Source: a virus (lineage: Duplodnaviria > Caudoviricetes). Taken from it: a DNA stretch of 51,413 nucleotides. The stretch lies in IMG/VR virus record IMGVR_UViG_3300012096_000002, positions 1-51,413 of that record; one strand, written 5' to 3'. Position 1 is the first letter of the stretch, and every line of letters starts with the position of its first letter. The translations under genes and the position numbers were made by a program. This document shows positions 4,282 to 47,265 of this stretch, piece after piece. A model generated the notes under the pieces. The model saw only the letters and a list, made by a program, of their open reading frames with translations. It was not told the origin of the DNA and did no database searches.

Positions 4282-6252
4282 TTGAAGGTTGTAATTGATA
4301 TTGAAACTAATTCTTTAATCAATCCCACTAAGATTTGGGTAGTGGTTTGTAAAAATATTGAGACAAATACCTATCACATTTTCCGTAACATAACTGAGGA
4401 CAGAACTGAACATGAAAACCTTACTAGATATCTTGAACAACTACGGACTGAAGCCAATAGTCTACTCATTGGGCATAATCTTCTTGGCTTTGATCTGCCT
4501 GTCCTTAGTTCCGCAGTACAGCTTCATAGTAAAATACTTCCTACTCAATGTATTGACACATTAATAATTTCTAAACTGGTAGACTACCCTAGACAAGGTC
4601 ATAGTATTGAAAGCTATGGTCTAGAATTTAGTCTACCTAAGATCCACTTCAATAAGTTTACTGAATATTCTCAAGAGATGGAGGACTACTGTGTACGAGA
4701 TGTCAATATTTGTCACAGGATCTATAGCAAGTATCTTAAGTATATTAGTAATCCGAGACATCAAGACTCAATACGATTGGAGCATGAGTTCCAAATTGTT
4801 GTCAACAATCTTCATGATAATGGTTTTTGTTTCAATAGCGAGCGGGCTACTGCACTACTCGCCAAAGTAAAGCATGAACTGTCTATCTTAGACAAGGATA
4901 TCTTAGAAGCATTTCCTCCTAAGCTTAAGCTTATAAGAGAAGTAACTCCTAAGGAGACTAAGTATGGTACTATTAGTCTTACAAGTATTCCTAAGGATCT
5001 ACGTAATCATACTGAAGAACTTAGTATTGATAGCCCGTTCTCGTATTGTACGTGGCAGACCTTCAATCCAAGCAGTCATAAACAGATTATATCTGTTCTT
5101 AATCAAGCAAATTGGAGACCAGTAGACAAGACACAGACACATATAGATACTGAGAGAGAACTGAGTAAATTAAAGTATACTAGGAGGACTCCTGAGCTTG
5201 ACACAAGACTTCAGGAGTTGTATGCTAAGCATGAAGTAATGAAGAAGGCAGGGTGGAAAGTAAACGAGACTAATCTCGAAACACTTCCCCAGACTGCCCC
5301 CTTATCCGCTCGCACCCTAGCGAAGCGTATCCTCCTTGAGTCCAGACGCCGTACCTTAAGCGAATGGTTGGCTCTAGTCCAACCAGATGGTCGCATCCAT
5401 GGTAAGTTCTATGGTATAGGTGCCTGGACTCATCGTATGGCCCACCAAAATCCCAACACTGCTAATATACCGAACGAGTTTGATACCAACAACAACAAGA
5501 AACTATATGGTAAAGAACTCCGTTCATTATGGTGTGCAGCTAAGAACCGATTACTAGTCGGCGTGGATGCAGAAGGTATCCAGTTGCGCATCTTTGCTCA
5601 TTACATCAATGATCCCGAGTTCACTAGAGCTCTAGTTGAAGGCAAGAAGGAGAACGGCAGTGATCCTCACACCCTTAACCAAAAGATTCTTGGGTCGGTA
5701 TGCAAGTCACGCCAAGCTGCTAAACGGTTCATTTATGCCTTGTTACTCGGCGCAGGATCCGGAAAGCTTACTGAAATATTGGGATGTACATCAGAGGAAA
5801 TGTCTATCGCTCTCGAGCGTCTTATGGGTAGATACCAAGGCTTTGCACATCTCAAAACAAATGTCATACCAGCCGATGCTATACGAGGTTGGTTTTCAGG
5901 CTTGGATGGTAGAAAGATTAGGATACCTGGCGACACTATCTCCCAACGACGGCACCTTTGCATGTCTGGTTATCTGCAAAGTGGTGAAGCGATTGTAATG
6001 AAATTAGCCACTCTCAAATGGTGGCAAAGACTAGAGAGTTATGGTGCTAAACTTGTTAACCTTGTACACGATGAATGGCAAGTAGAATGTCCCAACAATA
6101 TGACCACGGCATTGCATATCGCAAACCTGATGGCGAACTCGTTATCGTCAGTTGGAGAGGAACTGATGATGAAGTGCCCCTTGTCAGGGAGTTACTGGAA
6201 CGACACCTCGAACGACTATACGATAGCCCCTAACTGGAGTAAAACACATTGA
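4282..6252 (+). CDS. polA: Family A DNA polymerase with 3'-5' exonuclease
   Basis: ExoI DIET, GHNLLGFD; motif A DAEGIQLR; motif B RQAAKRFIYALLLG; motif C VHDE. Confidence 0.97.
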   Translation: MKVVIDIETNSLINPTKIWVVVCKNIETNTYHIFRNITEDRTEHENLTRYLEQLRTEANSLLIGHNLLGFDLPVLSSAVQLHSKILPTQCIDTLIISKLVDYPRQGHSIESYGLEFSLPKIHFNKFTEYSQEMEDYCVRDVNICHRIYSKYLKYISNPRHQDSIRLEHEFQIVVNNLHDNGFCFNSERATALLAKVKHELSILDKDILEAFPPKLKLIREVTPKETKYGTISLTSIPKDLRNHTEELSIDSPFSYCTWQTFNPSSHKQIISVLNQANWRPVDKTQTHIDTERELSKLKYTRRTPELDTRLQELYAKHEVMKKAGWKVNETNLETLPQTAPLSARTLAKRILLESRRRTLSEWLALVQPDGRIHGKFYGIGAWTHRMAHQNPNTANIPNEFDTNNNKKLYGKELRSLWCAAKNRLLVGVDAEGIQLRIFAHYINDPEFTRALVEGKKENGSDPHTLNQKILGSVCKSRQAAKRFIYALLLGAGSGKLTEILGCTSEEMSIALERLMGRYQGFAHLKTNVIPADAIRGWFSGLDGRKIRIPGDTISQRRHLCMSGYLQSGEAIVMKLATLKWWQRLESYGAKLVNLVHDEWQVECPNNMTTALHIANLMANSLSSVGEELMMKCPLSGSYWNDTSNDYTIAPNWSKTH

Positions 6253-6385: not shown

Positions 6386-6880
6386 ATGGTTAAATACGGT
6401 AAGACTGAAATAGTATACATTCAGGGTAAAGTATCTTGGTTTAGAAATAAGATGCCTAATCAATGGGATAAATACTCTGTACAAATACACCCCAATCCTA
6501 AAGACTTGGAAGTCATCCGAGACTTACAAGCTAGAGGTTTAAAGAATACTATTAAGAAGGATGATGATGGATATTTCACCACTTTTTCCAGACCAGTGAG
6601 TAAACAATACCAGAACCATAAGGTGCAGACCTTTGCTCCACCTACTGTGACTGATAAAGATGGTAACATCTATGAAGGTCAGGTAGGTAATGGTAGTGAT
6701 GCTACCCTTAAACTAGAAGTCTATGAACATGCTACTCCTGCCGGTGGTAAGGCTGTAGCTGCTCGGTGGACTGCAGCTAGGATAGATAACTTAGTACCTT
6801 ATGCAACTGAATTGGATGCCTTCCCTGAACAGAAGCAAGCTATCTCTGGATTAAAGGAACAACCCGAACAGTTGTTCTAA
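6386..6880 (+). CDS. Phage single-stranded DNA-binding protein (gp2.5-like)
   Basis: Follows polA; VGNGS motif; acidic tail ending in Phe (EQPEQLF). Confidence 0.7.
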   Translation: MVKYGKTEIVYIQGKVSWFRNKMPNQWDKYSVQIHPNPKDLEVIRDLQARGLKNTIKKDDDGYFTTFSRPVSKQYQNHKVQTFAPPTVTDKDGNIYEGQVGNGSDATLKLEVYEHATPAGGKAVAARWTAARIDNLVPYATELDAFPEQKQAISGLKEQPEQLF

Positions 6881-6884
6881 AGAA

Positions 6885-8368
6885 CGAAGACCTAGCAGAT
6901 CCCATATGCAGCAGGAAACCACGTGCTAGGCTTCGGAGGAGGGCAGGAAATCTGACACCGTACTAGTTCTCGGTACAAGTTCAGAAGAGCCCTCCTCTAT
7001 ATTTAATTCTACAGCATGAACCCTCCACGCTTTGGGAAAGCTTGCTAAGGAGTAAGCAACCCCACCCTCCCACAGGACTCAGGTACCTGGCTGTCGATGA
7101 CCTTGGGTATAGCCCAAGAGGAAATGAACCAATGTGTAGCTTGATTTCAACTAAGGGAAATCAAGCGCATCCCTATCTGGAATGTAACTGCTGGGGTGAC
7201 GCCCCTCAACTTCGTTAGCAAGAGACCGTGTCCAGTAGTCAGGGGTCCTGCTTCTGAATGAATGTACGGTGAGCAAGGCAGTGAGCGAAGGTAGCGAGCA
7301 CAACCACACATGTGTCTCATAAGCACAATGGTGGTAGATAGCACACAGACGTCGCGTATGCTGCAGGCATGGTGCATGTTCTGCATGGACCTCCTTTAAG
7401 GAGGGCGCGTATGAGGGTAAAGGACTTGTCTTCACTGACTAACGATCTGAAGCGAAGTAAGGTGGAAAAGAAGTCTACCACTCCCTGTTGGTTCGATTCC
7501 AACGTCCCATGCATTGGGAACTGGCGGCAATGGTGGCGTGCAGAAAGCGGAGCGAGTTGAGGTTCGATGCCTCTAGAGCTTGGGTAGCAGATAGCTCGGT
7601 GAGTACCCACGTAGTAGATTGATAGACAACTGAGGTACGCTAACAGTGTGAAACCTGTTAGGTGGGTTCGACTCCCACCCCATGAACGTAATGTAGTAGG
7701 ATCGTGATAAAAGCGAGACCCGACTAATTGAGCATTAAGGGTATCAGATACTTCTCAACCTCTGTGACCCCACTGTTTCCACTGTTCGAGCAAGCTGTCC
7801 CATGAACTCAGCCCAGACGACCCTGTGGAGCTGGTTGCGTAGACGCAGCATCATCTGACTGTGCACTGGATACTTACACCTCCAGGCTTTACGGAGCAGT
7901 ATGTACGAACCGGAAGGCTGATGATGTGGAGCACTGGCTATTTACCAGCTGGCTCAATAACTACTGTCCTACAGTGGACAGAGATGTGATCTACAGTCCG
8001 TTATGATGGTAGAAAGCAAGTATCCCTAGGTCGGGTTCCTAGTATTGAGCTTGTGACGGCCACAATCTGTTAGAGCATCAAGCCGCAGACTACTACGACT
8101 AGGTGCAACGCTGAAGTGTATAACCAAGCATGCACTGAATGGGTAGCTAAGACGTCCCAGCTGAGTCCAATTACATGGATGATACGGGATGCAAACCCGT
8201 CTAGCAAGTCCATAGAACTTCCTATTCGATGGCAGTCCCACGACGGTAAACTGCCTCTACAAGATCTGAAGGGAGTCTGAAGTGAATATCAGGTCCTCTC
8301 AACAGAAGCCTCGACCTCCTTAAAAACAATAACAGGCAGAGGTGGGCCGGGTTCGAGTCCACCTCTGT
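6885..8368 (+). ncRNA. Candidate large structured ncRNA (or RNA cluster) with multiple T-loop hairpins
   Basis: No credible ORF over ~1.5 kb; many hairpins; T-loop arms at 7487-7503, 7559-7573, 7661-7679; long-range pairs 7070-76/7822-28 and 7382-90/7504-13. Confidence 0.7.
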
Positions 8369-8388
8369 TACGAGAAAGGAGATGTGTC

Positions 8389-8682
8389 ATGAAGAAAGTT
8401 ATGCTGGTCGACCCGGATGATTTCTTCACCGGAGGTAGTCGATCTAAACGTGAAGTAATGACTGACGATTTGAAGATATACAAGAAGTGGAAGAAGTTCT
8501 TGAAAAAGGAAGAAGAAGACGCTAAGAAGAAAAAGGATGTCCCTACCAAATGGTGGGAGAAGAAGTCTGTTGCCGAGAGGACAGTTATTATTGCTATCCT
8601 CGGGCCACCATTCGGTATTCTATACGTCTATGGTTTGCTCCAGCTAGTTAAATTGATGGCTGAAACTATAGGAGTACACTGA
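8389..8682 (+). CDS. Hypothetical membrane protein
   Basis: AAGGAG RBS; charged N-terminus, C-terminal hydrophobic segment. Confidence 0.8.
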   Translation: MKKVMLVDPDDFFTGGSRSKREVMTDDLKIYKKWKKFLKKEEEDAKKKKDVPTKWWEKKSVAERTVIIAILGPPFGILYVYGLLQLVKLMAETIGVH

Positions 8683-8684
8683 TA

Positions 8685-8942
8685 ATGCCTGAATGGTATG
8701 AAATGATGGATGATCTTGATGGTCCTGAACAGGAGTGTCATGCACTCGATGCACACGTAACTAATTCACACAATGGAGGCAAGGTAACTTGCTATAAATG
8801 TAATGGTTTCATCCTATATAAGGATGTAGTTTCATATCTAGATCATCAACACAGAGATGAATTTCCTAGAGTACACTTCCACAAGGAATGCTACAATCCT
8901 TACGAACATTATTATGGATTAGATAAACCCAACCGTGACTGA
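8685..8942 (+). CDS. Hypothetical Zn-binding protein
   Basis: CYKC ... HFHKEC (LIM/PARP-finger-like spacing). Confidence 0.6.
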   Translation: MPEWYEMMDDLDGPEQECHALDAHVTNSHNGGKVTCYKCNGFILYKDVVSYLDHQHRDEFPRVHFHKECYNPYEHYYGLDKPNRD

Positions 8943-9795
8943 AATACGAACATTAATACAAGATATCTACCATCTGGTAGGTAAACAAGAGAACTGGCTG
9001 ACAAGTGATATCGCTACTAAATTCACATCTGAACTCACACTTAAACTCCAAGGATCCTTCAGTCCGCAAAGCAGCTCTGGATTACGTCTCTCAGGTATGG
9101 GCCCAAAGTGCCCGTGTCAGCTGTGGCACTCGGTACATACCCCACTGGATGCAGAGCCACTCCCACCCTGGGCCAGGATCAAATACACCTACGGACACAT
9201 ACTTGAAAGTCTTGTAATCGCAATGGCTAAGGCAGCCGGACATGAGGTAACAGGAGAACAAGATGCTGTATCTGTTGATGGGATCATCGGCCACAGAGAT
9301 TGTGTTATTGACGGGTACGTCGTTGACGTTAAGTCTGCTAGCAGCCGTGCTTTCCAAAAGTTCAAGGATGGTTCAATCGCATCCGATGATGGCTTTGGCT
9401 ATCTTGATCAACTTGATGGGTATCTTGTGGGGTCCACAGATGATCCACTGGTAAGATTTAAAGATAAAGGTTATCTATTAGCAATCGACAAACAATTAGG
9501 ACATATGTGTTTACATGAGCATACTTCGCGCCCGCAAAGCATTAGAGAAAGAATTCGAGATTATAGAACTATCGTCGCTCTTAATAGAGCTCCGAGCTGT
9601 ACTTGCGAAGAAGTACCCGAAGGAAAGTCCGGAAACTATCGCCTGGGCATTAGAGCAAGCTACAATGCGTTTAAGTACCAGTGTAAGCCACAGCTTCGAA
9701 CCTTCCTCTATTCAGATGGACCAAGATACCTAACTAAAGTAGTCAGGAAGCCTGATGTACCAGAAATAGATAGGCATGGAAGAATAGTTTATTGA
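8935..9795 (+). CDS. PD-(D/E)XK exonuclease (Cas4/lambda-exo-like)
   Basis: YGHILE, GHRDCVIDGYVVDVKS, YLDQLDGY. Confidence 0.8.
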   Translation: MTEIRTLIQDIYHLVGKQENWLTSDIATKFTSELTLKLQGSFSPQSSSGLRLSGMGPKCPCQLWHSVHTPLDAEPLPPWARIKYTYGHILESLVIAMAKAAGHEVTGEQDAVSVDGIIGHRDCVIDGYVVDVKSASSRAFQKFKDGSIASDDGFGYLDQLDGYLVGSTDDPLVRFKDKGYLLAIDKQLGHMCLHEHTSRPQSIRERIRDYRTIVALNRAPSCTCEEVPEGKSGNYRLGIRASYNAFKYQCKPQLRTFLYSDGPRYLTKVVRKPDVPEIDRHGRIVY

Positions 9796-13186: not shown

Positions 13187-14953
13187 TTACTCTTCAGAAG
13201 AAGGGGGAAAGAGTTCAAAATATTGCTTTACAAGTTTCTTATATCTAGCATGTTCGAAGTCAGATACTTGATCTTTAGAAGATATTTTATTCATCTCATC
13301 TCTGATAGCATCCCCTTTCTTAAGCTTACCTGCTAATTCATTCCAAGCTTTATCTACATCAACTCCACCTGTACCAAGATCTAAGTTCTTATTATCATTA
13401 GCAGCACGTCTAAAGTTAATAGGCTCACTCTTACTCTTAATCATCTGTCCAGTAATAGGATCCTCTACGCCATAAGCAGTGGCAAGCGCCGACTTACTAG
13501 TAGGTATTTGTTGTTCAGGAGGAATATCTTCTCCACCAAGCTCTTTTAGAGTACCTTTTGGAGGCAGAATACGACGTTGATGTAGAGTCATATGGAGTCT
13601 ATTCGCTACATTCCTAGCTTCAACTTCTCCTGCTAGCCTAAGATAATAATCATGAGCTTCCTTATCGCCAGCTGTCTGATATTTCTGATACTTAGCAGCA
13701 ACGTCAGTTATATAATCCATATCGTTTAGATCTTTATCAGTTAAACCCAATGCTCCCTTCTTCGCGTACTTTGCGTTTATATCATCCATCCTACCTCTAG
13801 CCCATTTAAGGTGCTCTTGCATAGCCTTATCTAATTTAAGATTATATTCTACTCCAGCTGTACCAGGTGCACCACCTTTAGCAAATCCTTCTATATCTTG
13901 GATAACATGTTGTACTTCATGCATCAATGTACCTTTATTCTGCGCAGCTTCAGATCCCACTCTTATAGTCTTATTAGCAGCATCCCATTCAGCTCCTGCG
14001 CTAGGATACTTAGGATCATGTACAACTCTTATATCTTGTAGTTGAGGATAAGCTTTATAGAGTTCAGGATGATCTAAAACTTTAGTTAAAGCAGATGTTT
14101 GCTCCCCTGTGGCAGAGTTAACTCTAGCATTGTCTTTCCAATCTGTGTTTAAAATAGACTTACTGTCATCTATCTCATATCTCCACTTACCTTCAGAGCC
14201 CTTACCAAAACCTGTCTTCCTCCATATACTCTTATCAAGCTGACCTTCTCCAGCCATCCGCATAGCATCCATTAATTTATCTGTATTTATGGTAGCACTC
14301 TTTACCCCAGCCATAGTGCCTGGACCTGCAGAGAGACCTATATTAATAGATTTATCTATATCTTCAGGAGTAATAGTTATCCAAGGATTGACATATGTAG
14401 CACCAGGAGGAACATAAGTCTTACCTAATATAGCTGGCTTTCCATTCTCATCAACCCAATGCCCTGCTAAATCAGGTCTATCTTTAGCATACATACTTTG
14501 ATCGGAGAACGTAGGATGATTTGGTTTCTTATAAACATCAGACCAATGTCCAGTTTCACCAGGTTGTTCTCCAGCTTTGAAAGCACCTCTAAAATCGTAG
14601 TCTTCTCCTGAATCCTTAGGAGCATTCTGTTGTTTCCAAGTTTGAAACTTTATCTCCTCTTCAGAACTTAATTTAGTCTCGTACTGTTTCCCCGGTATAT
14701 TGGTACCCCCAGATGATTTTAACGCACCAGTGGGCTCCGTAGGGCTTCCTACAGGCATTGTACGATAGACATTAAGTCTTGGAATAGCATCAAATCTATT
14801 CTGAAAGCTACCTGCCTTCTCATTCTCTTGAATCTGATTACGATCTGACTTCTCTTTAGCAGTCAGAGGTAATAGAGCCTGAGGTTTATTTTGATCTACT
14901 AATAGTTCACCTTCATCTTGATAGTAAACACCTGAACTAGAACCGATAGGCAT
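13187..14953 (-). CDS. Polyvalent internal virion protein with LPD23-like and zincin metallopeptidase regions
   Basis: IWRKTGFGKGSEGKWRYEIDDS, L..VLDHPELYKAYPQL, LMHEVQHVIQ.IEGFAKGG, YLRLAGEVEARNV; last gene of ejection cassette. Confidence 0.75.
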   Translation of the reverse strand: MPIGSSSGVYYQDEGELLVDQNKPQALLPLTAKEKSDRNQIQENEKAGSFQNRFDAIPRLNVYRTMPVGSPTEPTGALKSSGGTNIPGKQYETKLSSEEEIKFQTWKQQNAPKDSGEDYDFRGAFKAGEQPGETGHWSDVYKKPNHPTFSDQSMYAKDRPDLAGHWVDENGKPAILGKTYVPPGATYVNPWITITPEDIDKSINIGLSAGPGTMAGVKSATINTDKLMDAMRMAGEGQLDKSIWRKTGFGKGSEGKWRYEIDDSKSILNTDWKDNARVNSATGEQTSALTKVLDHPELYKAYPQLQDIRVVHDPKYPSAGAEWDAANKTIRVGSEAAQNKGTLMHEVQHVIQDIEGFAKGGAPGTAGVEYNLKLDKAMQEHLKWARGRMDDINAKYAKKGALGLTDKDLNDMDYITDVAAKYQKYQTAGDKEAHDYYLRLAGEVEARNVANRLHMTLHQRRILPPKGTLKELGGEDIPPEQQIPTSKSALATAYGVEDPITGQMIKSKSEPINFRRAANDNKNLDLGTGGVDVDKAWNELAGKLKKGDAIRDEMNKISSKDQVSDFEHARYKKLVKQYFELFPPSSEE

Positions 14954-17127
14954 TACTGTTTCCTATTGGGGTAGGAAGAATTGAAACGATCTTCAAAGGT
15001 ATCTTCCAATGTCTTTAGAGATCTAGTCTTATCATGTGAAGATATAATAGCTGTCTTCATAGGTTCAGTAATAGATTGAGTAGCTGGGTCAGCATTATTC
15101 AAGACTTCTAAGATATACCTACTTGTATTACCACCATCCTTATCTTGGATATTACTTAACTGAGCTAGAGCACCATCAACTCTACGAATATACTTATTCA
15201 TATTATCAATGTAAGGATTGCGAGAAGGATTAGGTAATTCTAAGAATTGATTACGATCGTTATCCCAATGAATATCGAAGTTACCTCCCCTACCAGCTAC
15301 CGCAGCTTCAGCAGCAGTTGGTTTCAAAGTAGCATTTGCTGCAGATCTCTCTTGAAATTGTTTATAAGCTTGAAAGGTAGAAGTCATATTATTCAGATCT
15401 TCTCTGAATAGAATTGGGAATTCATTCTCTCCCCACTTCTTCATGTTATCCCAAGCTATCCTACCATCACCACCTTGTTGCTTTAGTTTATACATACTGT
15501 CTATGATGTCAGTAGATAGCATACGATCAAAGGCAGAATACTTACCAGGAACATACTGTCCCTTCTGATTAGTATAGTCCATCTTAATCTCATCCATTAC
15601 ACCCCAGTTATTAGGAGCAAAGGCATACTTAGCTACATTAAGCTTAACATCATCAGGAGCTTTAGGATCAGCTAGTATCTTAGGAACCATCAGATAGTTA
15701 TCAATTAGACGAGTCTTAGGATCAACATTTGCTTTCTTAGCTTGTTGAATATCTTCTTTAAGACTAGCAGGATGCAACGGATCTATTTGAGAAGCAGCAT
15801 TAGCTAACTTACCTTGCATTATAGGAATAAGATCCTTGTCTAGATTATTTAACAGACCTTGTTTAAGCATTGCATCGCCCCAATTAGGAGCAATCTTATA
15901 TAAAGCGCCTAGTGCTTGCAGTTGTGTACCAACCTTAGGATCATTATATAGATTTAAATTATTCTTCTCATCAATAGACTGCGTTACTCTGGAAGCTGTA
16001 TGGGCAAAGCCTAACTTCTCATCTCCGATATATTTAATATACTCATCGAGAGGTTTAACCTGAGCAGTGATGTGAGACATAACTTTCTGCTCACCTATTA
16101 GACCCATAGTTGTTTGACCATTAGCATCAGGTTCATTAGCTTTACGTATTGCATTGGCAACAACATTAGCTCTTAGAGCGGTAAGACCCATTAATCCTTG
16201 TTCAAGTTTAACTGGATCTACTTTAGCACCTTCAGAATTAGCTTTAGTAATAGTATCTACCAAACCTTGAGCAGTCTGAGTGCCTCCAGCTATATGAGTA
16301 ATATCAAGAGCAGCCATAGTATCACTAGCTACTATCTTAGCAAAGGATTGTTCTGTCTTAGTTTGAATATCAGATAACCTACCTTGTTCATTAGTACGGT
16401 CAGACATTTCTTGCTGACGTTCATATTCTCTAGAAGAATATTTATAGATATAACTATAAACTTGACTAGGCGATAGCTTACCAGCATCCCATAAGGCTGC
16501 TGCTACATTAGCATTAGGAATACCCTGTTTTACAGCATCTCTAACCATAGTGGTAATCTTATCATGCTCTGACTTAGCATTACCAGCATTACGATTAATA
16601 TCTTCCAACAGATTACGCATCACTGCATTAGCAGGATCAACGCCACTGACAGTCTTAATCTGTTCATCAATATAATCCCGATATCCTGGATACTGAGCAC
16701 GCATTTGCTTAGCTAAAGAGTTAAGGTTCATGGTGTAGAGAGTATCATTAAGATGACCTCCCTGAATTTGGGAAGCACCTATAGCTTTAGCTCTATCTAA
16801 TCCTGCCTGTAATCCACCTGGAACCTGAGATTGCTGAGCCTCAGCTAATGTCTGCTCTTGATCTGGTATTACATTCTGAGCATTCTTGATACCTTGATAA
16901 GCATTGATGTAGTCGTCACGTAGCTTATTAACACCAGTATCAACCTTCTCCCTTAGGAAAGACTTCTCACTAGTATCATATAACTTAGCTGCTTCCTCAA
17001 TACCTGTAGCTGCTGTACCAAGAGCTATACCAGTTGACTTATCTGACTCAGGCTGTTGGATAGGCCGAGATACTCTAGTCCAATCTGGAATAGGTACTGC
17101 AGGTACTGTAGGATCGAAGCTAGCCAT
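14953..17127 (-). CDS. Internal virion (ejection) protein
   Basis: 724-aa helical, A/Q/N-rich; position after tail genes. Confidence 0.7.
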   Translation of the reverse strand: MASFDPTVPAVPIPDWTRVSRPIQQPESDKSTGIALGTAATGIEEAAKLYDTSEKSFLREKVDTGVNKLRDDYINAYQGIKNAQNVIPDQEQTLAEAQQSQVPGGLQAGLDRAKAIGASQIQGGHLNDTLYTMNLNSLAKQMRAQYPGYRDYIDEQIKTVSGVDPANAVMRNLLEDINRNAGNAKSEHDKITTMVRDAVKQGIPNANVAAALWDAGKLSPSQVYSYIYKYSSREYERQQEMSDRTNEQGRLSDIQTKTEQSFAKIVASDTMAALDITHIAGGTQTAQGLVDTITKANSEGAKVDPVKLEQGLMGLTALRANVVANAIRKANEPDANGQTTMGLIGEQKVMSHITAQVKPLDEYIKYIGDEKLGFAHTASRVTQSIDEKNNLNLYNDPKVGTQLQALGALYKIAPNWGDAMLKQGLLNNLDKDLIPIMQGKLANAASQIDPLHPASLKEDIQQAKKANVDPKTRLIDNYLMVPKILADPKAPDDVKLNVAKYAFAPNNWGVMDEIKMDYTNQKGQYVPGKYSAFDRMLSTDIIDSMYKLKQQGGDGRIAWDNMKKWGENEFPILFREDLNNMTSTFQAYKQFQERSAANATLKPTAAEAAVAGRGGNFDIHWDNDRNQFLELPNPSRNPYIDNMNKYIRRVDGALAQLSNIQDKDGGNTSRYILEVLNNADPATQSITEPMKTAIISSHDKTRSLKTLEDTFEDRFNSSYPNRKQ

Positions 17128-20100
17128 TATTGTTTATATTCCTGTTGTAGTTTAGTTCTATACTGTTCTGTACGTGTGGCTTGTACATCCGATTGGAACC
17201 ATTTCTTAGTGGGTACCTTAGTAGTTGCGAAGTGTTGTGAGACTTGATCTGCTTGAGTTTCATAACCATTCATAGCTTTAGATATGACTCCAGCTCTCAT
17301 GTCTAGAGGCATACCTGCCCACTCCATACGACCAAAAGCTCTACGAAAATAATCATTAGATTGATTCTGATCTTGAGCAGCAGAAGTCATTAAACCTCTA
17401 CGAATTTCTTTAATGACTTCCTTCTCAGTCCACTTCTGGTAATCATCTTCAGACTTCTTGATATTAGTTATCTGATAAGCATCATCTGCTTCTTGACCGT
17501 GTAGACCTGTAACTCCTTGAAATAGAGCATTTAAAGTACTGACATTACCTTGATAACCTTCATTCTTAGATAACCATTTACCTGTATTCAAAGCAGTTAA
17601 CACCTGCCAAGAAGAATTAATACTAGATACTTCCTTGAAGACATCTAAAGCATCTTCTACTTTAAAAGGATGATCCATCTCTTTAGGATTACCTCGTATA
17701 CCTGAGATTATTGATAAAGCTAAAGGACTTGCACTAGCTAGAGTATTGGAGAAGATACTGACACCAGCACCACCTAATAGCTGCCACCAAGTATGGTCAG
17801 ACCATAGTTGATTGAAACCTTGAATACCATAACGTGGTCCTACATTATAGAAGTTACCCTTTTCCAGATCACCTTTACCAGTGACCATAGCTCCTAGGAT
17901 AGCAGGTAAACCTTCCATCATTGCAGAGGTAAACCAATTGTGTCCCATAACATAACCACGATCTATTGCTTCCTTACGAAAGACATCATATAGAGGTAGA
18001 CCTGTTAAACCAAAGGCTACTGGTATACCGTATAGACTTGAATAGATTGCAGCCATCCTAGTCTTAGCAGCTAAGCTAAGTCTATTACCCAGAAACTGTT
18101 CAGTAGTTCTAAGTTGATAAGTTAAGAATTGAGTGGTAAGACCCATGACTCCAGTATGTAATTCAGAAGCAGAAGCCCTGGACATATTGGCGCTGAGTAA
18201 GTCAGCTCTATGTAATATTGAAGCTCTATCAGAATTAGTAATTAAACCAGTAGGTTTAACTTCCCTAAACTCTCGATAAGCAGTATACCAAGCTCCTAAT
18301 CTAACAGACTTCTCACCAGCTCTGAAGAATCCTTGCCCTGCATTTAAGAAGTTACCCCAATCATTACCAATGAATTGATGTTGAACATTATCACGCATAG
18401 CATATTCACCAGAGACATGTTCGAAACCAGTCTCACGTAGAAGTCTATTAGCTTCTAACCATTCACCAGGTTTACCAAAACCTAGATTAGAAGCAGCACT
18501 ATCTAGTTTAGATAAGAAGCCTTCAGTCCTATTAATATTAGCCCAACCATGTAAGAACGCACCAGCAGTGCCACCTGCGCCATGTTTAAAGCCTGCTATA
18601 CCAACTATAGACGCATAGGTTTGTGCTTGCACCAGTATTTGCGCAGGATTAAATACACCAAGTTTAGTATTAAAAGCAAAGGATCTTAATAGACGAACAG
18701 GATCATGGATATGACTCAGTGCCCAGAGAGGAATGATGGCAGCCTTCTCAGCTAGTCCACCTTTCTCATAAGCTGTATCGGCTAGATGTTGAGCTAAGCT
18801 ATGAGTCCAAGTATCAAAGGTATTAGGTATACCTACAAACTGATTAATCTTCATTCTATTAGCTAGAAGCTTATTCAATATCTCAGGAGGAGTAGCTGAT
18901 TTAAAAGCATTCTTATCTGTAGCTTGATGGAAGTTCCAGAATGGAGAAGCCCTTAACGAGGATTCATTCTCCTTTAAATAAGGTCCTGCTTCACGAAGCC
19001 AATGCTCGACAGCAAAGATCTTGTAGTCATCCATATAGGTACTATTGATTGCTCTATTGAGAGCACGGTTCATAGTAGGAATAGGATCTGTTAACTTAGC
19101 AGGTTCATACTTCCATAAAGAACTATCCCGTCCACCAGTTATAGTACCAACTCTCTCAGCATCACGTTGTAAGTTAAAGGCAACTCTATTCTGAGCTGCA
19201 TCAGATCCTTCTTTAGTACCATCTCGGAATGTACCTGGATATCTTGACTCAAGAGACTTATCTAGATCATATATCTTTCTATTCTTAGGTACGACATAGA
19301 ATGGTTCTGTAGTGCTCAGACGTGGAGGAATTATATTACCTTTAGGATCTCTACTAGGCTTAAACCACTTACTTAGTTCATCCCATTTAATAGGTAGAGT
19401 TCTCTCGGTTAAAGCTTGAGCTTCATCTAATTGATTCTTACCAATCAAGACACGAACAGCATCTAGACGTCTAGCGACATCTGCACCCTTAGCTCTATTA
19501 TCAATAGGCATTACAGTCTGATCTCCAGTGTAGAGATCATTGTACTTAGTACGCTTATCACTAGCTACTGTACCAGCACGTTCCGGAATTATCTGAGCCT
19601 GCTTAATATAATGTTCATAAGGATATTCAAAGTGACCGCCACCACGTCTTGCAACATGGTTGAAGTCTAGTGGTTTAGTTTCAACGTTATCTGTTACTAC
19701 ATACCTGACACGTTCTGAAGCAGCTACGTCACTGAAATTCTTAAGAGGATATTCATCTGGATTATAAATCCGTATTACTTTACGAGCACCTACAGAAACA
19801 TCTTTCTCTAACTTCTCCCAAATTTGAGGATTAAGAGCACGACTTTGCAGATTGTATAACTTCTCATCGCCGAGACGATTACCCATGATCAAGACATTAT
19901 CTTTACCATGGGGCATTGTTTTCTCTTCTATTCCATCGAAGAAACCAGATCTCTCAAATTGATTAGAACCTGAAACACCACTACGAGATAACGCAGCAAT
20001 CTGATGTTGCTCTGTACCTATACGGGCACGGTTACGAAACTCTGCTATCTCTGAGAATATTCTATTACCTTCAGTTAACTTAACGTGAGCAAAGTAAGCC

Positions 20101-22211
20101 TCTACCTCTGGGAAACTAGGAGAACGGTTATAATATCTTAGATAATGATCTTCCAATTCTCCGGGTGTCTTAAAGAAATAGCCAGGGAGTCCTGTATCAG
20201 GATCGTTAATCTTACGAGCTTGATCTAAGACATCTGTAAAGTCTTTCCAAGTCTGTCGTTGTTTTAGTGTAACTTTATTGAGCAGTGCTCTAGGCTTAGC
20301 ACTCCAATACCCATAACTAGTACCAGTAATAGGATCATTTTTATAGTAACCAGTAGCAATTGCTTCGATCTTAGATTGTTCATCCTTAGCCCACTGTTTG
20401 AATAAGTTCTGGGTATAAGTAGCAACTAGACGTTGCTTCATATCATTTACAGCTAAAGTATTGTCAGCACCACGCCATCTGCTGAAGGCAGCTTTGAGAG
20501 TTCCCGTTTCATTGGATACACTACTAGCACCGGGTCCAGTAAAGTTACCTTTAGTATCTCTATCGATCATATAGTTGCGGACTATATCTTCAGTTTCATT
20601 ATATGGTTTTGTAACTACAAGTTTGAAACCTAGACCATCCTGAGCTACCTTAGCCCCAGTAAGACCGTGCATATCTGCAAAGTTCTGGGCTGTAGTAGCA
20701 TTAGAATGTAACGTACCATCTAGATCCCCTAGATGAGTTTCCACATGCCAGGTATTAGTAACAGGTTCCCGTATAGGAGGAGATTGATCTAGAATAGCAT
20801 TCTCTAGACCTTTGAAATTATTCTTATTAAGTTCTCCATAAGCACGGAGAGCATTCTCTGTCTCCAGAGGAATTGGAGTTCTATTAACTCTAGCTGCAGT
20901 AACAGCAGTCTGGAGAATAGTATCAGCAGATCTAGTAAACCCATCTTGAAGACGAGTCATTTGTTCTCTACTCATAGCTCCAGGACGATTGTAATTATAA
21001 TCAGTAGCTAGCTGTTCTAAATCTAATCTGAAGTTAGAAGGCAACCTATCGATCATATCCTGAAAGAAGTTATCCTTACCGTTAAGAGTCTTAGTTACCT
21101 TATCCGCAGTTCTTATTACTCCAGCTTCTGCAACATTACCTGCACCTTCAGCGGCAGCAGCTTTGATGGGAATGTCTTTAGCATCCTTAGCAGCAGAAGA
21201 TATAATATCTCTGACAGCAGTCCTAGCTTGGTTATAGACAGCAACCTTACGAGCTAAAGAAAGACCACCTTTAAAACCTGTAGCAATATCTACTGGAGCT
21301 ATAGCTGTGGAGAAGTTATCTATGGTACTTCGAGAGGAAGTAACACCTGCTAGATAGTCAACAAATTGTTTAGCCAGACTAGGATTATCTTGACGTAGAG
21401 GATTTAAGATAGCATCAACTCTAGTTTTAAATACTTCTTGATCTGGTATACGTAAAAGGAAATCAGCCTGAGCTTGTAAGTTAGTGCCTAAACCTAAACC
21501 TCCAGATACTTTACCTACCTCTGGAACAAGACCACGCATCTTAGCTTCAGGATATACCTGAGTAAGACTTTTAAGTTGATCTGCTAAATAAGGTACCCAA
21601 CCCTGCTCATGTACTTCCTGATTTAAATTATCTTGCCAAGTACGAACATACTCCATCTTAAAGACAGCAAGATTTCCTTTATCAAGCAAGGGTTGTACTT
21701 GTTCTGGAATATCCTTTACAGCTTCATCCATCACAGTATCTTTCATGCGAGCCGCAGCCTCATGAATAGATCCTATGTAAGACTTACCAAAATTCTCTTC
21801 CATTACTGTGGTAGGATCGGTAGGTTTGTTAGCAGGATTGAAAGGATCTAATATCCTTCTAACCTCAGTATAATCTAGCAATCCTTGCTTCTGATTAGCA
21901 GCATCAATTAGCATCTTCTGCTTCTGCTGAGCCTTCTGCTGATCTAAAACTGAAGATAACTCTTCACGTAATCCAGGTTCATCACCTTTAGATATACGCA
22001 TATAGACTTGAGCTGCATCCATAACTCCACTATTACCAAAGGCATAGTTGAACTTATCAGCACGCTTCTTAGCTATCTCAGGCTGAGGAGGCTCTACTGG
22101 AGCAGGTCCTGCCGGAGCTAGACTAATTTGAGTATCAGCAGCTTGTGCAGGTTCTGAGATTGAGATTGGAGTAGAAGTATCTTCTTGAGGTAATTCTTGA
22201 GGTTCAGCCAT
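17127..22211 (-). CDS. Large internal virion (ejection) protein
   Basis: 1694 aa; gp16-like size and position. Confidence 0.75.
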   Translation of the reverse strand: MAEPQELPQEDTSTPISISEPAQAADTQISLAPAGPAPVEPPQPEIAKKRADKFNYAFGNSGVMDAAQVYMRISKGDEPGLREELSSVLDQQKAQQKQKMLIDAANQKQGLLDYTEVRRILDPFNPANKPTDPTTVMEENFGKSYIGSIHEAAARMKDTVMDEAVKDIPEQVQPLLDKGNLAVFKMEYVRTWQDNLNQEVHEQGWVPYLADQLKSLTQVYPEAKMRGLVPEVGKVSGGLGLGTNLQAQADFLLRIPDQEVFKTRVDAILNPLRQDNPSLAKQFVDYLAGVTSSRSTIDNFSTAIAPVDIATGFKGGLSLARKVAVYNQARTAVRDIISSAAKDAKDIPIKAAAAEGAGNVAEAGVIRTADKVTKTLNGKDNFFQDMIDRLPSNFRLDLEQLATDYNYNRPGAMSREQMTRLQDGFTRSADTILQTAVTAARVNRTPIPLETENALRAYGELNKNNFKGLENAILDQSPPIREPVTNTWHVETHLGDLDGTLHSNATTAQNFADMHGLTGAKVAQDGLGFKLVVTKPYNETEDIVRNYMIDRDTKGNFTGPGASSVSNETGTLKAAFSRWRGADNTLAVNDMKQRLVATYTQNLFKQWAKDEQSKIEAIATGYYKNDPITGTSYGYWSAKPRALLNKVTLKQRQTWKDFTDVLDQARKINDPDTGLPGYFFKTPGELEDHYLRYYNRSPSFPEVEAYFAHVKLTEGNRIFSEIAEFRNRARIGTEQHQIAALSRSGVSGSNQFERSGFFDGIEEKTMPHGKDNVLIMGNRLGDEKLYNLQSRALNPQIWEKLEKDVSVGARKVIRIYNPDEYPLKNFSDVAASERVRYVVTDNVETKPLDFNHVARRGGGHFEYPYEHYIKQAQIIPERAGTVASDKRTKYNDLYTGDQTVMPIDNRAKGADVARRLDAVRVLIGKNQLDEAQALTERTLPIKWDELSKWFKPSRDPKGNIIPPRLSTTEPFYVVPKNRKIYDLDKSLESRYPGTFRDGTKEGSDAAQNRVAFNLQRDAERVGTITGGRDSSLWKYEPAKLTDPIPTMNRALNRAINSTYMDDYKIFAVEHWLREAGPYLKENESSLRASPFWNFHQATDKNAFKSATPPEILNKLLANRMKINQFVGIPNTFDTWTHSLAQHLADTAYEKGGLAEKAAIIPLWALSHIHDPVRLLRSFAFNTKLGVFNPAQILVQAQTYASIVGIAGFKHGAGGTAGAFLHGWANINRTEGFLSKLDSAASNLGFGKPGEWLEANRLLRETGFEHVSGEYAMRDNVQHQFIGNDWGNFLNAGQGFFRAGEKSVRLGAWYTAYREFREVKPTGLITNSDRASILHRADLLSANMSRASASELHTGVMGLTTQFLTYQLRTTEQFLGNRLSLAAKTRMAAIYSSLYGIPVAFGLTGLPLYDVFRKEAIDRGYVMGHNWFTSAMMEGLPAILGAMVTGKGDLEKGNFYNVGPRYGIQGFNQLWSDHTWWQLLGGAGVSIFSNTLASASPLALSIISGIRGNPKEMDHPFKVEDALDVFKEVSSINSSWQVLTALNTGKWLSKNEGYQGNVSTLNALFQGVTGLHGQEADDAYQITNIKKSEDDYQKWTEKEVIKEIRRGLMTSAAQDQNQSNDYFRRAFGRMEWAGMPLDMRAGVISKAMNGYETQADQVSQHFATTKVPTKKWFQSDVQATRTEQYRTKLQQEYKQ

Positions 22212-46489: not shown

Positions 46490-46742
46490 TAATTACTTGG
46501 AGACACTGAGTCGTATCAGGTGCGTACTTGAGCCTAAGGGTGTGTTCCTTAGCCTTCCTCATTTAAAGAAGTACGTGGAAGAGTATACTAGCGGCAGAAT
46601 GCGTCCACATTTTCCTATGCCTGCAATACGACTTTACGTTCAAATATATGATTTGTGTGTAGATATATTTGACGATAGTAACAATGGAATGACTTTCTAC
46701 AAAGGAGAGGGACCAGATGAAACGAATTGGAATATTTATTGA
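46479..46742 (+). CDS. Early hypothetical protein
   Basis: AGGAGG RBS before MSHDNYL. Confidence 0.65.
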   Translation: MSHDNYLETLSRIRCVLEPKGVFLSLPHLKKYVEEYTSGRMRPHFPMPAIRLYVQIYDLCVDIFDDSNNGMTFYKGEGPDETNWNIY

Positions 46743-47265
46743 TGGTTCCAATCTGTACATGTCTACTAAAGCATTAGGCTTCAGGGTCGACTTCACTAAG
46801 TTACTTAACTATTACAAGGAACAAGGTGATGTTGCTCATGCCTTCTACTTCACTGCTCTACCACCTAAGGAGGTACAATCAGGTCTACGAAGAATGATTG
46901 ATTACGTAGATTACAATGGTTTCACTGTGATTCAGAAGGAAACCAAGGAATATACTGATACCGAGGGCGTTAAGAAACTGAAGGGGAACATGGATGTTGA
47001 GATTGCTGTGCGTGTTAACGAGACTGCACCATTCATCACCAATCTTGTGCTATTCTCAGGTGATGGTGACTTCCATGCACTACTTGAGTCAGTGCAGCGG
47101 AGGTACGGTATACATTGTACTGTGGTCTCTGCTAGGTCGCTAATTGCTGATAGTCTGCGTCGACAAGCCAATGAGTTTGTCGATTTGGCAACGCTTCGTG
47201 ATAGGTTTGAGCACGCGGACTCTATCCTACGCAAACGTAAGTTTAACTTCTTAGATGGAAAGTGA
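46717..47265 (+). CDS. NYN-domain (LabA/DUF88, PIN-like) ribonuclease
   Basis: IFIDGSNLY, KGNMDVEIA, LFSGDGDF, LRRQANEFVDL. Confidence 0.92.
   Translation: MKRIGIFIDGSNLYMSTKALGFRVDFTKLLNYYKEQGDVAHAFYFTALPPKEVQSGLRRMIDYVDYNGFTVIQKETKEYTDTEGVKKLKGNMDVEIAVRVNETAPFITNLVLFSGDGDFHALLESVQRRYGIHCTVVSARSLIADSLRRQANEFVDLATLRDRFEHADSILRKRKFNFLDGK

Follow-up and report, generated by a model that had tools for sequence, protein, structure and literature searches.

The closest described system to the phage RNA reported here is YrlA, whose order of parts, V, T, closed acceptor stem and D, is likened by its authors to circularly permuted transfer RNAs (tRNAs), and for which the portions of the literature drawn on here also give a solved structure, with an elbow formed by the T-loop together with two D-loop guanines, a proposed origin from a dimeric pre-tRNA, and occurrence in 22 bacteriophages (PMC4201824; bioRxiv 10.1101/312249). 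Permuted tRNA genes proper, described in some algae and one archaeon, have the T-arm and the 3' strand of the acceptor upstream of the acceptor 5' strand and the D-arm, with the acceptor closed by a loop, and give real tRNAs through a circular intermediate; for bacteria the part of the preprint used here knows of no such splicing machinery (bioRxiv 10.1101/312249). The RNAs GOLLD and ROOL come from phages and prophages and occur in the neighbourhood of tRNA islands, with tRNAs sometimes lying in the GOLLD linker; both form cages, and many GOLLD members exceed 800 nt, as far as the cited portion of that work goes (bioRxiv 10.1101/2024.12.08.627333). Here we analyse a stretch of 51,413 bp (the window), which is the complete IMG/VR virus record IMGVR_UViG_3300012096_000002 of a soil phage (Duplodnaviria; Caudoviricetes), with direct terminal repeats present. 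On its + strand lies a conserved, covarying, structured non-coding RNA without an open reading frame (ORF), at 6997-8365 (approximate ends), which holds three arms of tRNA T-arm type. We give a probability of roughly 0.6 to the reading that these are functional T-arms in a multi-domain RNA of about 1.37 kb that shows tRNA elbows to a partner and/or uses them as architecture, the structural half of this picture being much more secure than the partner-binding half.

All three arms listed by an earlier note on this DNA were confirmed on the + strand: T-arm 1 (GTTGG-TTCGATT-CCAAC, 7487-7503, with a stem that can be extended to U7486-G7504), T-arm 2 ((T)GAGG-TTCGATG-CCTC(T), 7558-7574, with four of five stem pairs) and T-arm 3 (GTGGG-TTCGACT-CCCAC, 7662-7678). 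A scanner for a 5-bp stem with a closing G-C pair and a T[TG]C[AG]ANN loop finds three arms on the + strand of the gap between genes (6881-8388), against a mean of 0.052 in dinucleotide shuffles, none of 1000 shuffles reaching three. The bare motif GTTCGANYC is not significantly enriched across the whole window (three seen against 1.75 expected; 26 of 100 shuffles reach three). ARAGORN finds no tRNA or transfer-messenger RNA (tmRNA) gene in the window, in keeping with the expectation of the earlier note that no full tRNA would be present. A fourth T-loop site proposed there, GGTTCGAGTCC at 8350-8360, is present in the sequence, yet it makes no T-arm: only two of five stem pairs form, and the site sits in the 9-nt loop of a 9-bp hairpin (8339-8347 with 8357-8365), where the relatives carry GTTTGAGCC, GAACGAGCC, GTTAGAGCC or an unrelated loop.

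The region that carries the arms is a conserved, paired element of the + strand. The gap at 6881-8388 has no credible ORF and a GC content of 0.51, compared with about 0.40 around it, and every one of the six frames contains numerous stops, with each of the three kinds represented. No 3-base periodicity is seen in the variable columns of the alignment, and the lengths of pairwise indels fall into the classes modulo 3 as 42/198/73; hidden ORFs and alternative genetic codes were rejected on the stops in every frame, the missing periodicity and the non-triplet indels. A search with the protein of 164 amino acids (aa) encoded immediately upstream recovered nine related viral loci, all with an ORF-free stretch of 1.1-2 kb 3' of the gene, and searches with conserved DNA patterns recovered the same viral contigs plus 22 metagenome loci, 17 of them true homologues and five chance matches in coding DNA (chance matches, L018; L033, L040, L041, L042 and L048, were excluded before analysis). 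Once near-identical copies are removed, about 10 lineages remain, which share 57-69% identity with the window and as much as 87% among themselves, and conservation runs from about 6997 to the end of a hairpin at 8365. Over the full length, the RNAalifold prediction from 12 sequences comprises 258 pairs, arranged in about 55 helices, with 127 compensatory pairs and 91% of cells canonical. Helical modules are gained and lost whole between lineages: L002, L005, G002 and G004 have an insertion in the 5' domain, and the window and L005 have a second one at 7995-8075. The optional 5'-domain module, which the window does not have, contains a T-loop-like hairpin in L002 (about 4781-4797, GG-UGCAAAU-CC) and in L005 (about 4866-4882, GGG-UGCAAUC-CCC), and the same insertion occurs in G002 and G004.

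Within this RNA, 44 pairs were counted for the T-arm domain (7442-7705) in the 12-sequence alignment, with 94.5% of cells pairing compared with 79.7% in shuffles, and 29 pairs changed on both sides compared with 13.1 in shuffles, figures reached by none of 500; sliding the partners by 1-3 columns lowers pairing to 37-46%. Two near-invariant helices found by RNAalifold enclose the domain, with 5' strands inside 7415-7427 (GGGU 7415-7418, GACUU 7423-7427) and partners at 7718-7721 and 7711-7714; since both sides are nearly invariant, they pair at 100% and covariation is uninformative there. The domain is closed by helix P_a (7442-7448 with 7699-7705; seven pairs, five changed on both sides, 97.6% of cells paired), followed by P_b (7452-7456 with 7685-7689; five pairs, four changed on both sides) and by AAGGUGG (7459-7465), whose GG at 7461-7462 pairs with CC at 7679-7680 beside T-arm 3. 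The helix of T-arm 1 (7486-7491 with 7499-7504) has six pairs, five changed on both sides and 100% paired, around loop letters G-TTCGAT-C that are invariant in the 12 sequences (G53, T54, T55, C56, A58 and C61). The helix of T-arm 2 has four pairs, two of which changed on both sides, and that of T-arm 3 (7662-7666 with 7674-7678) has five pairs, three changed on both sides and 100% paired. Directly 5' of T-arm 3 stands a variable-arm-like hairpin with a GUGAAA-type loop (7640-7661; six pairs, five changed on both sides), and 3' of this arm come the CC that pairs with 7461-7462 and then the 3' strand of P_b; T-arm 3 is stacked on a long helix that covaries. Across the alignment the T-loop letters are invariant or nearly so, and all three arms are kept in homologous regions with compensatory changes in their stems; the T-arms are under selection.

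The same arms recur more widely. Searching with a profile built from the 164-aa protein yields 50 viral loci at 32-80% identity, and downstream of this gene (223 kb in all) there are 89 perfect T-arms on the + strand, compared with 0.95 in block shuffles; a further arm lies upstream of the gene and another on the − strand in 471 kb. Of the 45 loci with 2.5 kb or more of downstream sequence, 40 carry one or more perfect T-arms. It is the + strand that folds, as shown by the invariant G·U pairs, which read on that strand, and by the strand bias of 89 to 1. These data bear directly on the idea, also raised by the earlier note, of an array of ordinary tRNA genes decaying without present function, to which the likeness of the D-arm, T-arm and variable-arm-like pieces to tRNA-Leu would lend itself. 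Against it stand the compensatory stem changes and invariant loops across lineages 57-69% identical to the window, the covariation of pairings that no tRNA has (the closed hairpin described below, P_a and P_b), the 89 arms on one strand in 50 loci, and the lack of any cloverleaf in native order. Barring alignment artefacts, the covariation counts already contradict decay, and we regard it as very improbable.

Around T-arm 1 the pairing differs from what the earlier note had proposed. A helix does stack directly on this arm, but it is a local closed, acceptor-like hairpin (UCCCA-UGCAU-UGGGA, 7505-7509 with 7515-7519; five pairs, three changed on both sides, 100% paired) and not the pairing of 7382-7390 with 7504-7513. 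The latter two stretches are complementary in the window (nine pairs with one bulge), and in the 12 sequences this helix is not conserved: pairing reaches 60.3% of cells, a level matched by 272 of 500 shuffles, and four of the nine pairs are found in the window only. Two bases after the closed hairpin comes a D-arm-like element, U G GCG-GCAAUGGUGG-CGU (7522-7539), followed by a three-way junction module (7548-7599) made of helix P_c (7548-7553 with 7594-7599), T-arm 2 and a mini D-arm-like hairpin (GCU-UGGGU-AGC, 7578-7588, in which a G-C pair becomes U-A in four sequences). P_c was read from the sequences and left out of the counts because MAFFT shifts it by one column in some rows; it covaries between lineages, with strands CGGAGC/GCTCGG in the window (five of six pairs), CTGAGC/GCTCAG in L002 and L003, CTGAGC/GCTCGG in L007, GGGAGT/GCTCCC in G001 and L037, and GAAGCT/AGCTTC in G004. 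The earlier note had seen no canonical D-arm, anticodon arm or CCA; the last two are indeed absent, while D-arm-like elements with GG are found. Its description of the arms as tRNA-elbow mimics therefore stands in so far as these are genuine selected T-arms without tRNA genes and with D-arm-like GG elements alongside, which makes an elbow-like fold plausible; the mimics are not free-standing, the arms being modules of a conserved RNA of about 1.4 kb.

To judge from their letters, the parts around the T-arms resemble parts of tRNA-Leu, in a permuted and closed order. With Escherichia coli K-12 leuV as the comparison sequence, the D-arm-like element of the window matches the leuV D-arm at 11 of 13 letters, and the corresponding stretch in more distant relatives does so at 18 of 19 (L092) and 26 of 28 (L101). 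AAGGTGG is identical to leuV positions 4-10, and the L003 stretch AAGGUGGCGGAAU (AAGGTGGCGGAAT) corresponds to leuV positions 4-16 at 13 of 13 letters. With class II tRNA-Leu the phage RNA has in common the T-arm consensus, a UGGCGGAAUUGGUAGACGC-type D-arm and a long variable arm before the T-arm, whereas it has no native-order cloverleaf, no open 7-bp acceptor stem, no CCA and no tRNA call by ARAGORN or Rfam. In the wider family, 15 units follow the order T-arm, closed hairpin, D-arm-like element, with the closed hairpin present in all 15 and stem sequences that all differ; 14 of them have the form U-G-GCG-loop-CGY, and GG occurs in 13 of those 14 loops. A module of variable-arm-like hairpin plus T-arm, with unrelated stems, was found in 15 of 51 loci. 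The sequence of T-arm, closed acceptor hairpin and D-arm is that of a circularly permuted tRNA with its acceptor closed by a loop. We infer that the domain may consist of two nested tRNA-Leu-like units, as would arise from a tandem tRNA pair that exchanged acceptor-strand partners.

The permuted order was also put to a re-permutation test, in which 14 units were rearranged in a script and passed to ARAGORN. Cloverleaves were called in 632 of 6300 re-permuted sequences, in none of 6300 in native order and in 57 of 6300 with the 5' part shuffled. The calls were robust in five of the 14 units (L059, 93; L088, 120; L092, 140; L093, 116; L068, 148). For the window, re-permutation stays at background, and so the permuted-tRNA reading of the window copy rests on homology with the relatives and on the order of T-arm, hairpin and D-arm. 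Where an anticodon arm would stand, the window has the three-way junction of P_c, T-arm 2 and the mini D-arm, and the acceptor is closed by a 5-nt loop and has neither discriminator nor CCA; for some tRNA-like features this copy is the most derived. Run with introns allowed and at default threshold on 51 loci, ARAGORN gives 10 tRNA-like calls. Every call is on the + strand; eight contain an intron, and the two that do not are those in L083 and L087. "Leu" or other long-arm types, with ends just past a T-arm, account for several of them. Calls made at -ps90 were disregarded, being many, on both strands and also in coding DNA. One use of such tRNA-shaped, phage-borne units might be as decoys for host anticodon nucleases or other tRNA-cleaving defence enzymes, a suggestion of the earlier note, and some relatives do have a complete anticodon-type arm once re-permuted. 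For the window it is weakened because the three-way junction with T-arm 2 replaces the anticodon arm, the junction of P_c and T-arm 2 filling that place in the window lineage. In the relatives, moreover, the anticodon-type loops differ from one another and several lack U at position 33; we hold a decoy of this kind to be quite unlikely.

The YrlA RNAs allow the most direct comparison. The phage RNA shares with them the order of T stem-loop (7487-7503), closed acceptor (7505-7519) and D stem-loop (7522-7539), whereas YrlA is stand-alone and about 100-200 nt long, and the phage unit is nested in a second tRNA-like unit inside an RNA of 1.4 kb. The phage RNA has no YrlA match among the 4227 families of Rfam, at gathering score or at E values up to 10, in a library where presence of the YrlA model was not confirmed by accession. 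YrlA RNAs have a Ro60-binding stem with GNCGAA(N)G near the 5' end; compared by eye only, the letters at the domain base are AGCGAAG in the window and AGCGGAA, AGTGGAA or AGCAGAA in relatives, and the motif does not appear to be conserved. With no model match, no TROVE gene in the phage and no sign of a conserved motif, the RNA does not count as a YrlA RNA. From permuted tRNA genes the phage unit differs by having no CCA or discriminator, a short closed stem and, in the window lineage, no anticodon arm. The YrlA of Mycobacterium smegmatis, with a closed acceptor stem of 7 bp, is cleaved by RNase P and receives CCA, and for YrlA RNAs with shorter stems the part of the paper used here reports no cleavage (PMC4201824). 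This precedent raises the alternative that the arms are processing punctuation, or belong to a precursor of split or permuted tRNA-like products, cut by RNase P, RNase Z or a phage nuclease so as to free RNA fragments or to part the upstream from the downstream message. In its favour, the closed hairpins reach at least 6-7 bp in some relatives, the phage encodes an NYN-domain nuclease-like protein (46717-47265), and the RNA lies between genes of the same strand. The closed hairpin of the window and its near relatives is only 5-6 bp, though, with no discriminator or CCA, which puts it with the short-stem YrlA left uncut in that account (PMC4201824), and the remainder of the 1.4 kb is conserved and paired, which a cleavage mark would not need. 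We think such a role unlikely.

GOLLD and ROOL offer the other precedent, and with it the main rival to our reading: purely architectural T-loops, of use for tertiary structure or self-assembly alone, in a giant scaffold of that kind, possibly an RNA-only multimer, with no tRNA-binding partner. Like these RNAs, the phage RNA is large, ornate, phage-borne and tRNA-associated; it is modular, with whole helical modules gained and lost, and phage and prophage cages near tRNA islands supply a model (bioRxiv 10.1101/2024.12.08.627333, as far as the portion cited goes). A search for a partner of the TROVE type in the phage genome yielded none, which would also fit. It differs from GOLLD and ROOL in being longer (about 1.37 kb) and in having tRNA-derived parts as integral rearranged modules instead of separate tRNA genes, and the covariance models of both families give no match in the window, even at E values up to 10, or in 14 related loci. 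The full tRNA consensus, with Leu-type D-arms, variable-arm-like hairpins and acceptor-like stacks, exceeds what structural T-loops would need, and by eye, with no systematic search made, the alignments show no conserved self-complementary loop. A purely architectural role is possible, without being the probable one.

Against Rfam 15 at gathering score, there is no match in the window, the region or 14 relatives. At E values up to 10 only chance-level matches appear (SNORA38, mir-7094, SNORD15, PssrA and Hammerhead_HH9), plus the tmRNA T-arm: no stretch of the domain other than T-arm 3 touches an Rfam model, and this arm does so at 12.3 bits compared with a gathering score of 47. In two-piece (permuted) tmRNA genes, too, the T-arm and the acceptor 3' strand precede the acceptor 5' strand. 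Only the 17-nt T-arm of the phage RNA matches the Rfam tmRNA model, however, ARAGORN finds no tmRNA in the window or the 51 loci, and a tag reading frame is not apparent. The partial match to HH9 (7630-7664; 13.3 bits compared with 52, E 1.9) is weak and was rejected as a hammerhead, a ribozyme with three stems and a core of CUGANGA and GAAA; it is probably chance, the relatives having CCGAGGG at the core. We found no published description of this RNA in full-text literature searches that did not take in the supplementary tables of a viral structured-RNA catalogue (PMC10690425), and the kind of RNA seems to be undescribed. That catalogue, of 2023, lists about 10,000 short viral candidates with models of 29-151 nt, in the portion drawn on here, and may contain fragments of the phage RNA (PMC10690425).

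Beyond the alignable relatives, the family becomes diverse. Nucleotide similarity to the window RNA is found in 12 of the 50 loci, eight full-length or nearly so and four partial; by eye, the hairpin loop UCUCAUUA, GGCUGGAUAAUCC and the 3' ACCUCCUUAA recur in distant members. A hairpin that follows GAGCACAACC and has the conserved loop UCUCAUUA(R) occurs in the window (7311-7329), in L009 (about 5205-5225), in L066 and in L075; it lies 3' of the T-arms in L009 and 5' of them in the window, which suggests rearrangement of domains. The distant relative L008/L074 has four perfect T-arms (L074 6694, 7613, 8047 and 9045) and no tRNA call; three of the four lie in one ORF-free stretch of 1.7 kb in L074, which nhmmer cannot align to the window RNA. 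ARAGORN calls a tRNA in just two of the 50 loci, a 94-nt 'Asn(att)' at 1617-1710 of L083 and an Ile(gat) at 5881-5952 of L087, which may be intact tRNAs or better-preserved units. A scan of viral contigs for a T-arm, closed hairpin and Leu-type D-arm found at least 80 loci; among the matches listed, 65 of 85 lie in ordinary tRNAs and 20 do not. Several of these 20 have the closed-hairpin layout in unrelated large phages: L112, L121, L140, L141, L143, L146, L155 and others combine a T-arm, a closed hairpin of 5-8 bp and a Leu-type D-arm with no ARAGORN call, some in genomes of 100-400 kb. At the non-tRNA matches Rfam names ordinary tRNAs only, those in L112, L143 and L109 being partial and without acceptor ends. 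Going by these layouts, tRNA-like units of the permuted, closed form may occur across many phages. A pattern scan of bacterial and archaeal genomes gave four loci, two of them archaeal, motif-only and at chance level, and two without a match to the hidden Markov model.

The 3' end of the RNA (8316-8380, + strand) consists of ACCUCCUUAA, with CUCCU at 8316-8320, a GC-rich hairpin at 8339-8365 with a 9-bp stem, and the Shine-Dalgarno sequence AGGAG at 8376-8380. The nine letters of ACCUCCUUAA are those found at the 3' end of 16S rRNA, and the element could mask the ribosome-binding site of the gene that follows (start codon 8389) or act as an anti-Shine-Dalgarno mimic. For the terminal hairpin, 11 pairs are predicted, eight of them compensatory; no U-tract follows it and the scan found no terminator there. 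The whole element might accordingly be a very long cis-acting leader in which CUCCU pairs with AGGAG and controls translation of the downstream gene for a 97-aa protein. Their pairing is predicted in 94% of cells, and both elements are conserved next to where that gene starts (8389). Neither strand varies, which leaves no covariation to count; 1.3 kb of conserved structure far exceeds what sequestering a ribosome-binding site would need, and L005, which has a different 3' part, still has the T-arm domain. We consider a leader of this kind improbable as an account of the RNA. Scanning for sigma-70 promoters and intrinsic terminators found none on the + strand. A phage promoter would be expected to recur across the genome, which the conserved 5' start motif does not.

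The RNA is set in a T7-like replication module on the + strand at the left end of the window, with a primase/helicase (797-2371), DNA polymerase A (4282-6252), the 164-aa protein of the ORF list immediately upstream of the RNA (6386-6880) and, downstream, the 97-aa protein with a hydrophobic C-terminus (8389-8682, also from the ORF list) and a Cas4-like exonuclease (8935-9795). In all relatives the 164-aa gene lies between the DNA polymerase and the RNA, the RNA always being 3' of it. Neither the 164-aa nor the 97-aa protein has a match in Pfam or PHROG. The former ends in an acidic C-terminus with a terminal F (…EQPEQLF), a tail that presumably resembles those of single-strand DNA-binding proteins of T7 gp2.5 type, and it is possibly such a protein. 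The 182-aa NYN-domain protein (46717-47265, + strand; PF01936, E 1e-27) could be an RNA nuclease of this giant-RNA phage. Other genes give context only: a GGACT (gamma-glutamyl cyclotransferase-like) domain protein (162-836), a 588-aa protein with an LPD23 domain (13187-14953) and a 1694-aa ORF on the − strand (17127-22211). By DNA polymerase, no cultured phages are closer than roseobacter phages, which reach at most 38% identity, and for this reason there is no cultured model for the RNA. BLASTN of the RNA region against phage GenBank gave no match; the run index lists nine runs that contain the sequence, all of soil-metagenome DNA and none of RNA, and as far as that index goes the relatives all come from soil-metagenome DNA.

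We hypothesise that the central domain (7442-7705) is assembled from class II (leucine-type) tRNA-like parts in a topology that is not that of a tRNA. An outer unit would comprise the long acceptor-like helix (P_a/P_b), a U8/D-arm-like start, the variable-arm-like hairpin and T-arm 3, and inside it an inner unit would comprise T-arm 1, the closed acceptor hairpin and the D-arm-like element, giving the shape of a circularly permuted tRNA that lacks both free ends and CCA. By analogy with tRNA and YrlA, each T-loop could dock with a GG-bearing D-type loop to form a rigid tRNA-like elbow. Such elbows might fix the geometry of the big RNA, and, having no chargeable ends, could potentially be presented to an elbow-recognising partner, much as YrlA Y RNAs are thought to tether effectors.

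Several points weigh against this proposal. The elbow contacts are inferred from tRNA and YrlA, and the sole hint of contact between a T-loop and a D-loop is that in the sister lineages L002 and L003 a T-loop UGCGAUG changed jointly with a loop UGAGU. The enclosing helices and the GG/CC pairing next to T-arm 3 show no covariation, the outer D-arm-like stretch has a deletion in the window, and the G004 lineage has no GG in the inner D-type loop. Re-permutation of the window did not exceed background (five calls compared with 10 when shuffled), and the T-arm 2 module is missing in L004 and L005 and is thus dispensable there. As to a partner, PF05731 (Ro60/TROVE) has no match in the complete phage genome, control genomes being positive. 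The sequence set is small (about 10 lineages) and the MAFFT alignments put some helices in the wrong place. The fold of the T-arm domain as a single sequence is not unusually stable (z = -0.27; 73 of 200 shuffles equal it), so that the case rests on covariation and not on energy.

A more far-reaching possibility, which we put forward tentatively and as rather doubtful, is that a clade of phages of about 50 kb carries RNAs of 1-2 kb that evolved from tandem tRNA-Leu genes by an acceptor-strand swap into multi-elbow mimics that have no chargeable ends and would capture or re-route a host elbow reader during infection; candidate readers would be the ribosome, RNase P, enzymes that modify the T-arm or a tRNA-directed defence nuclease. 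A comparative set is at hand, with T-arms at the same place in 40 of 45 related phage loci. If the element is real as described, it would rank among the largest structured RNAs of non-ribosomal kind that phages are known to have, with a core recognisably made of tRNA parts, and would join three subjects so far kept apart: the giant ornate RNAs of phages, tRNA mimicry of the YrlA kind and the idea of an origin from dimeric tRNA precursors. Were the more far-reaching reading to hold, giant RNAs would gain a new class, and a new way would be known by which tRNA can give rise to regulatory RNA.

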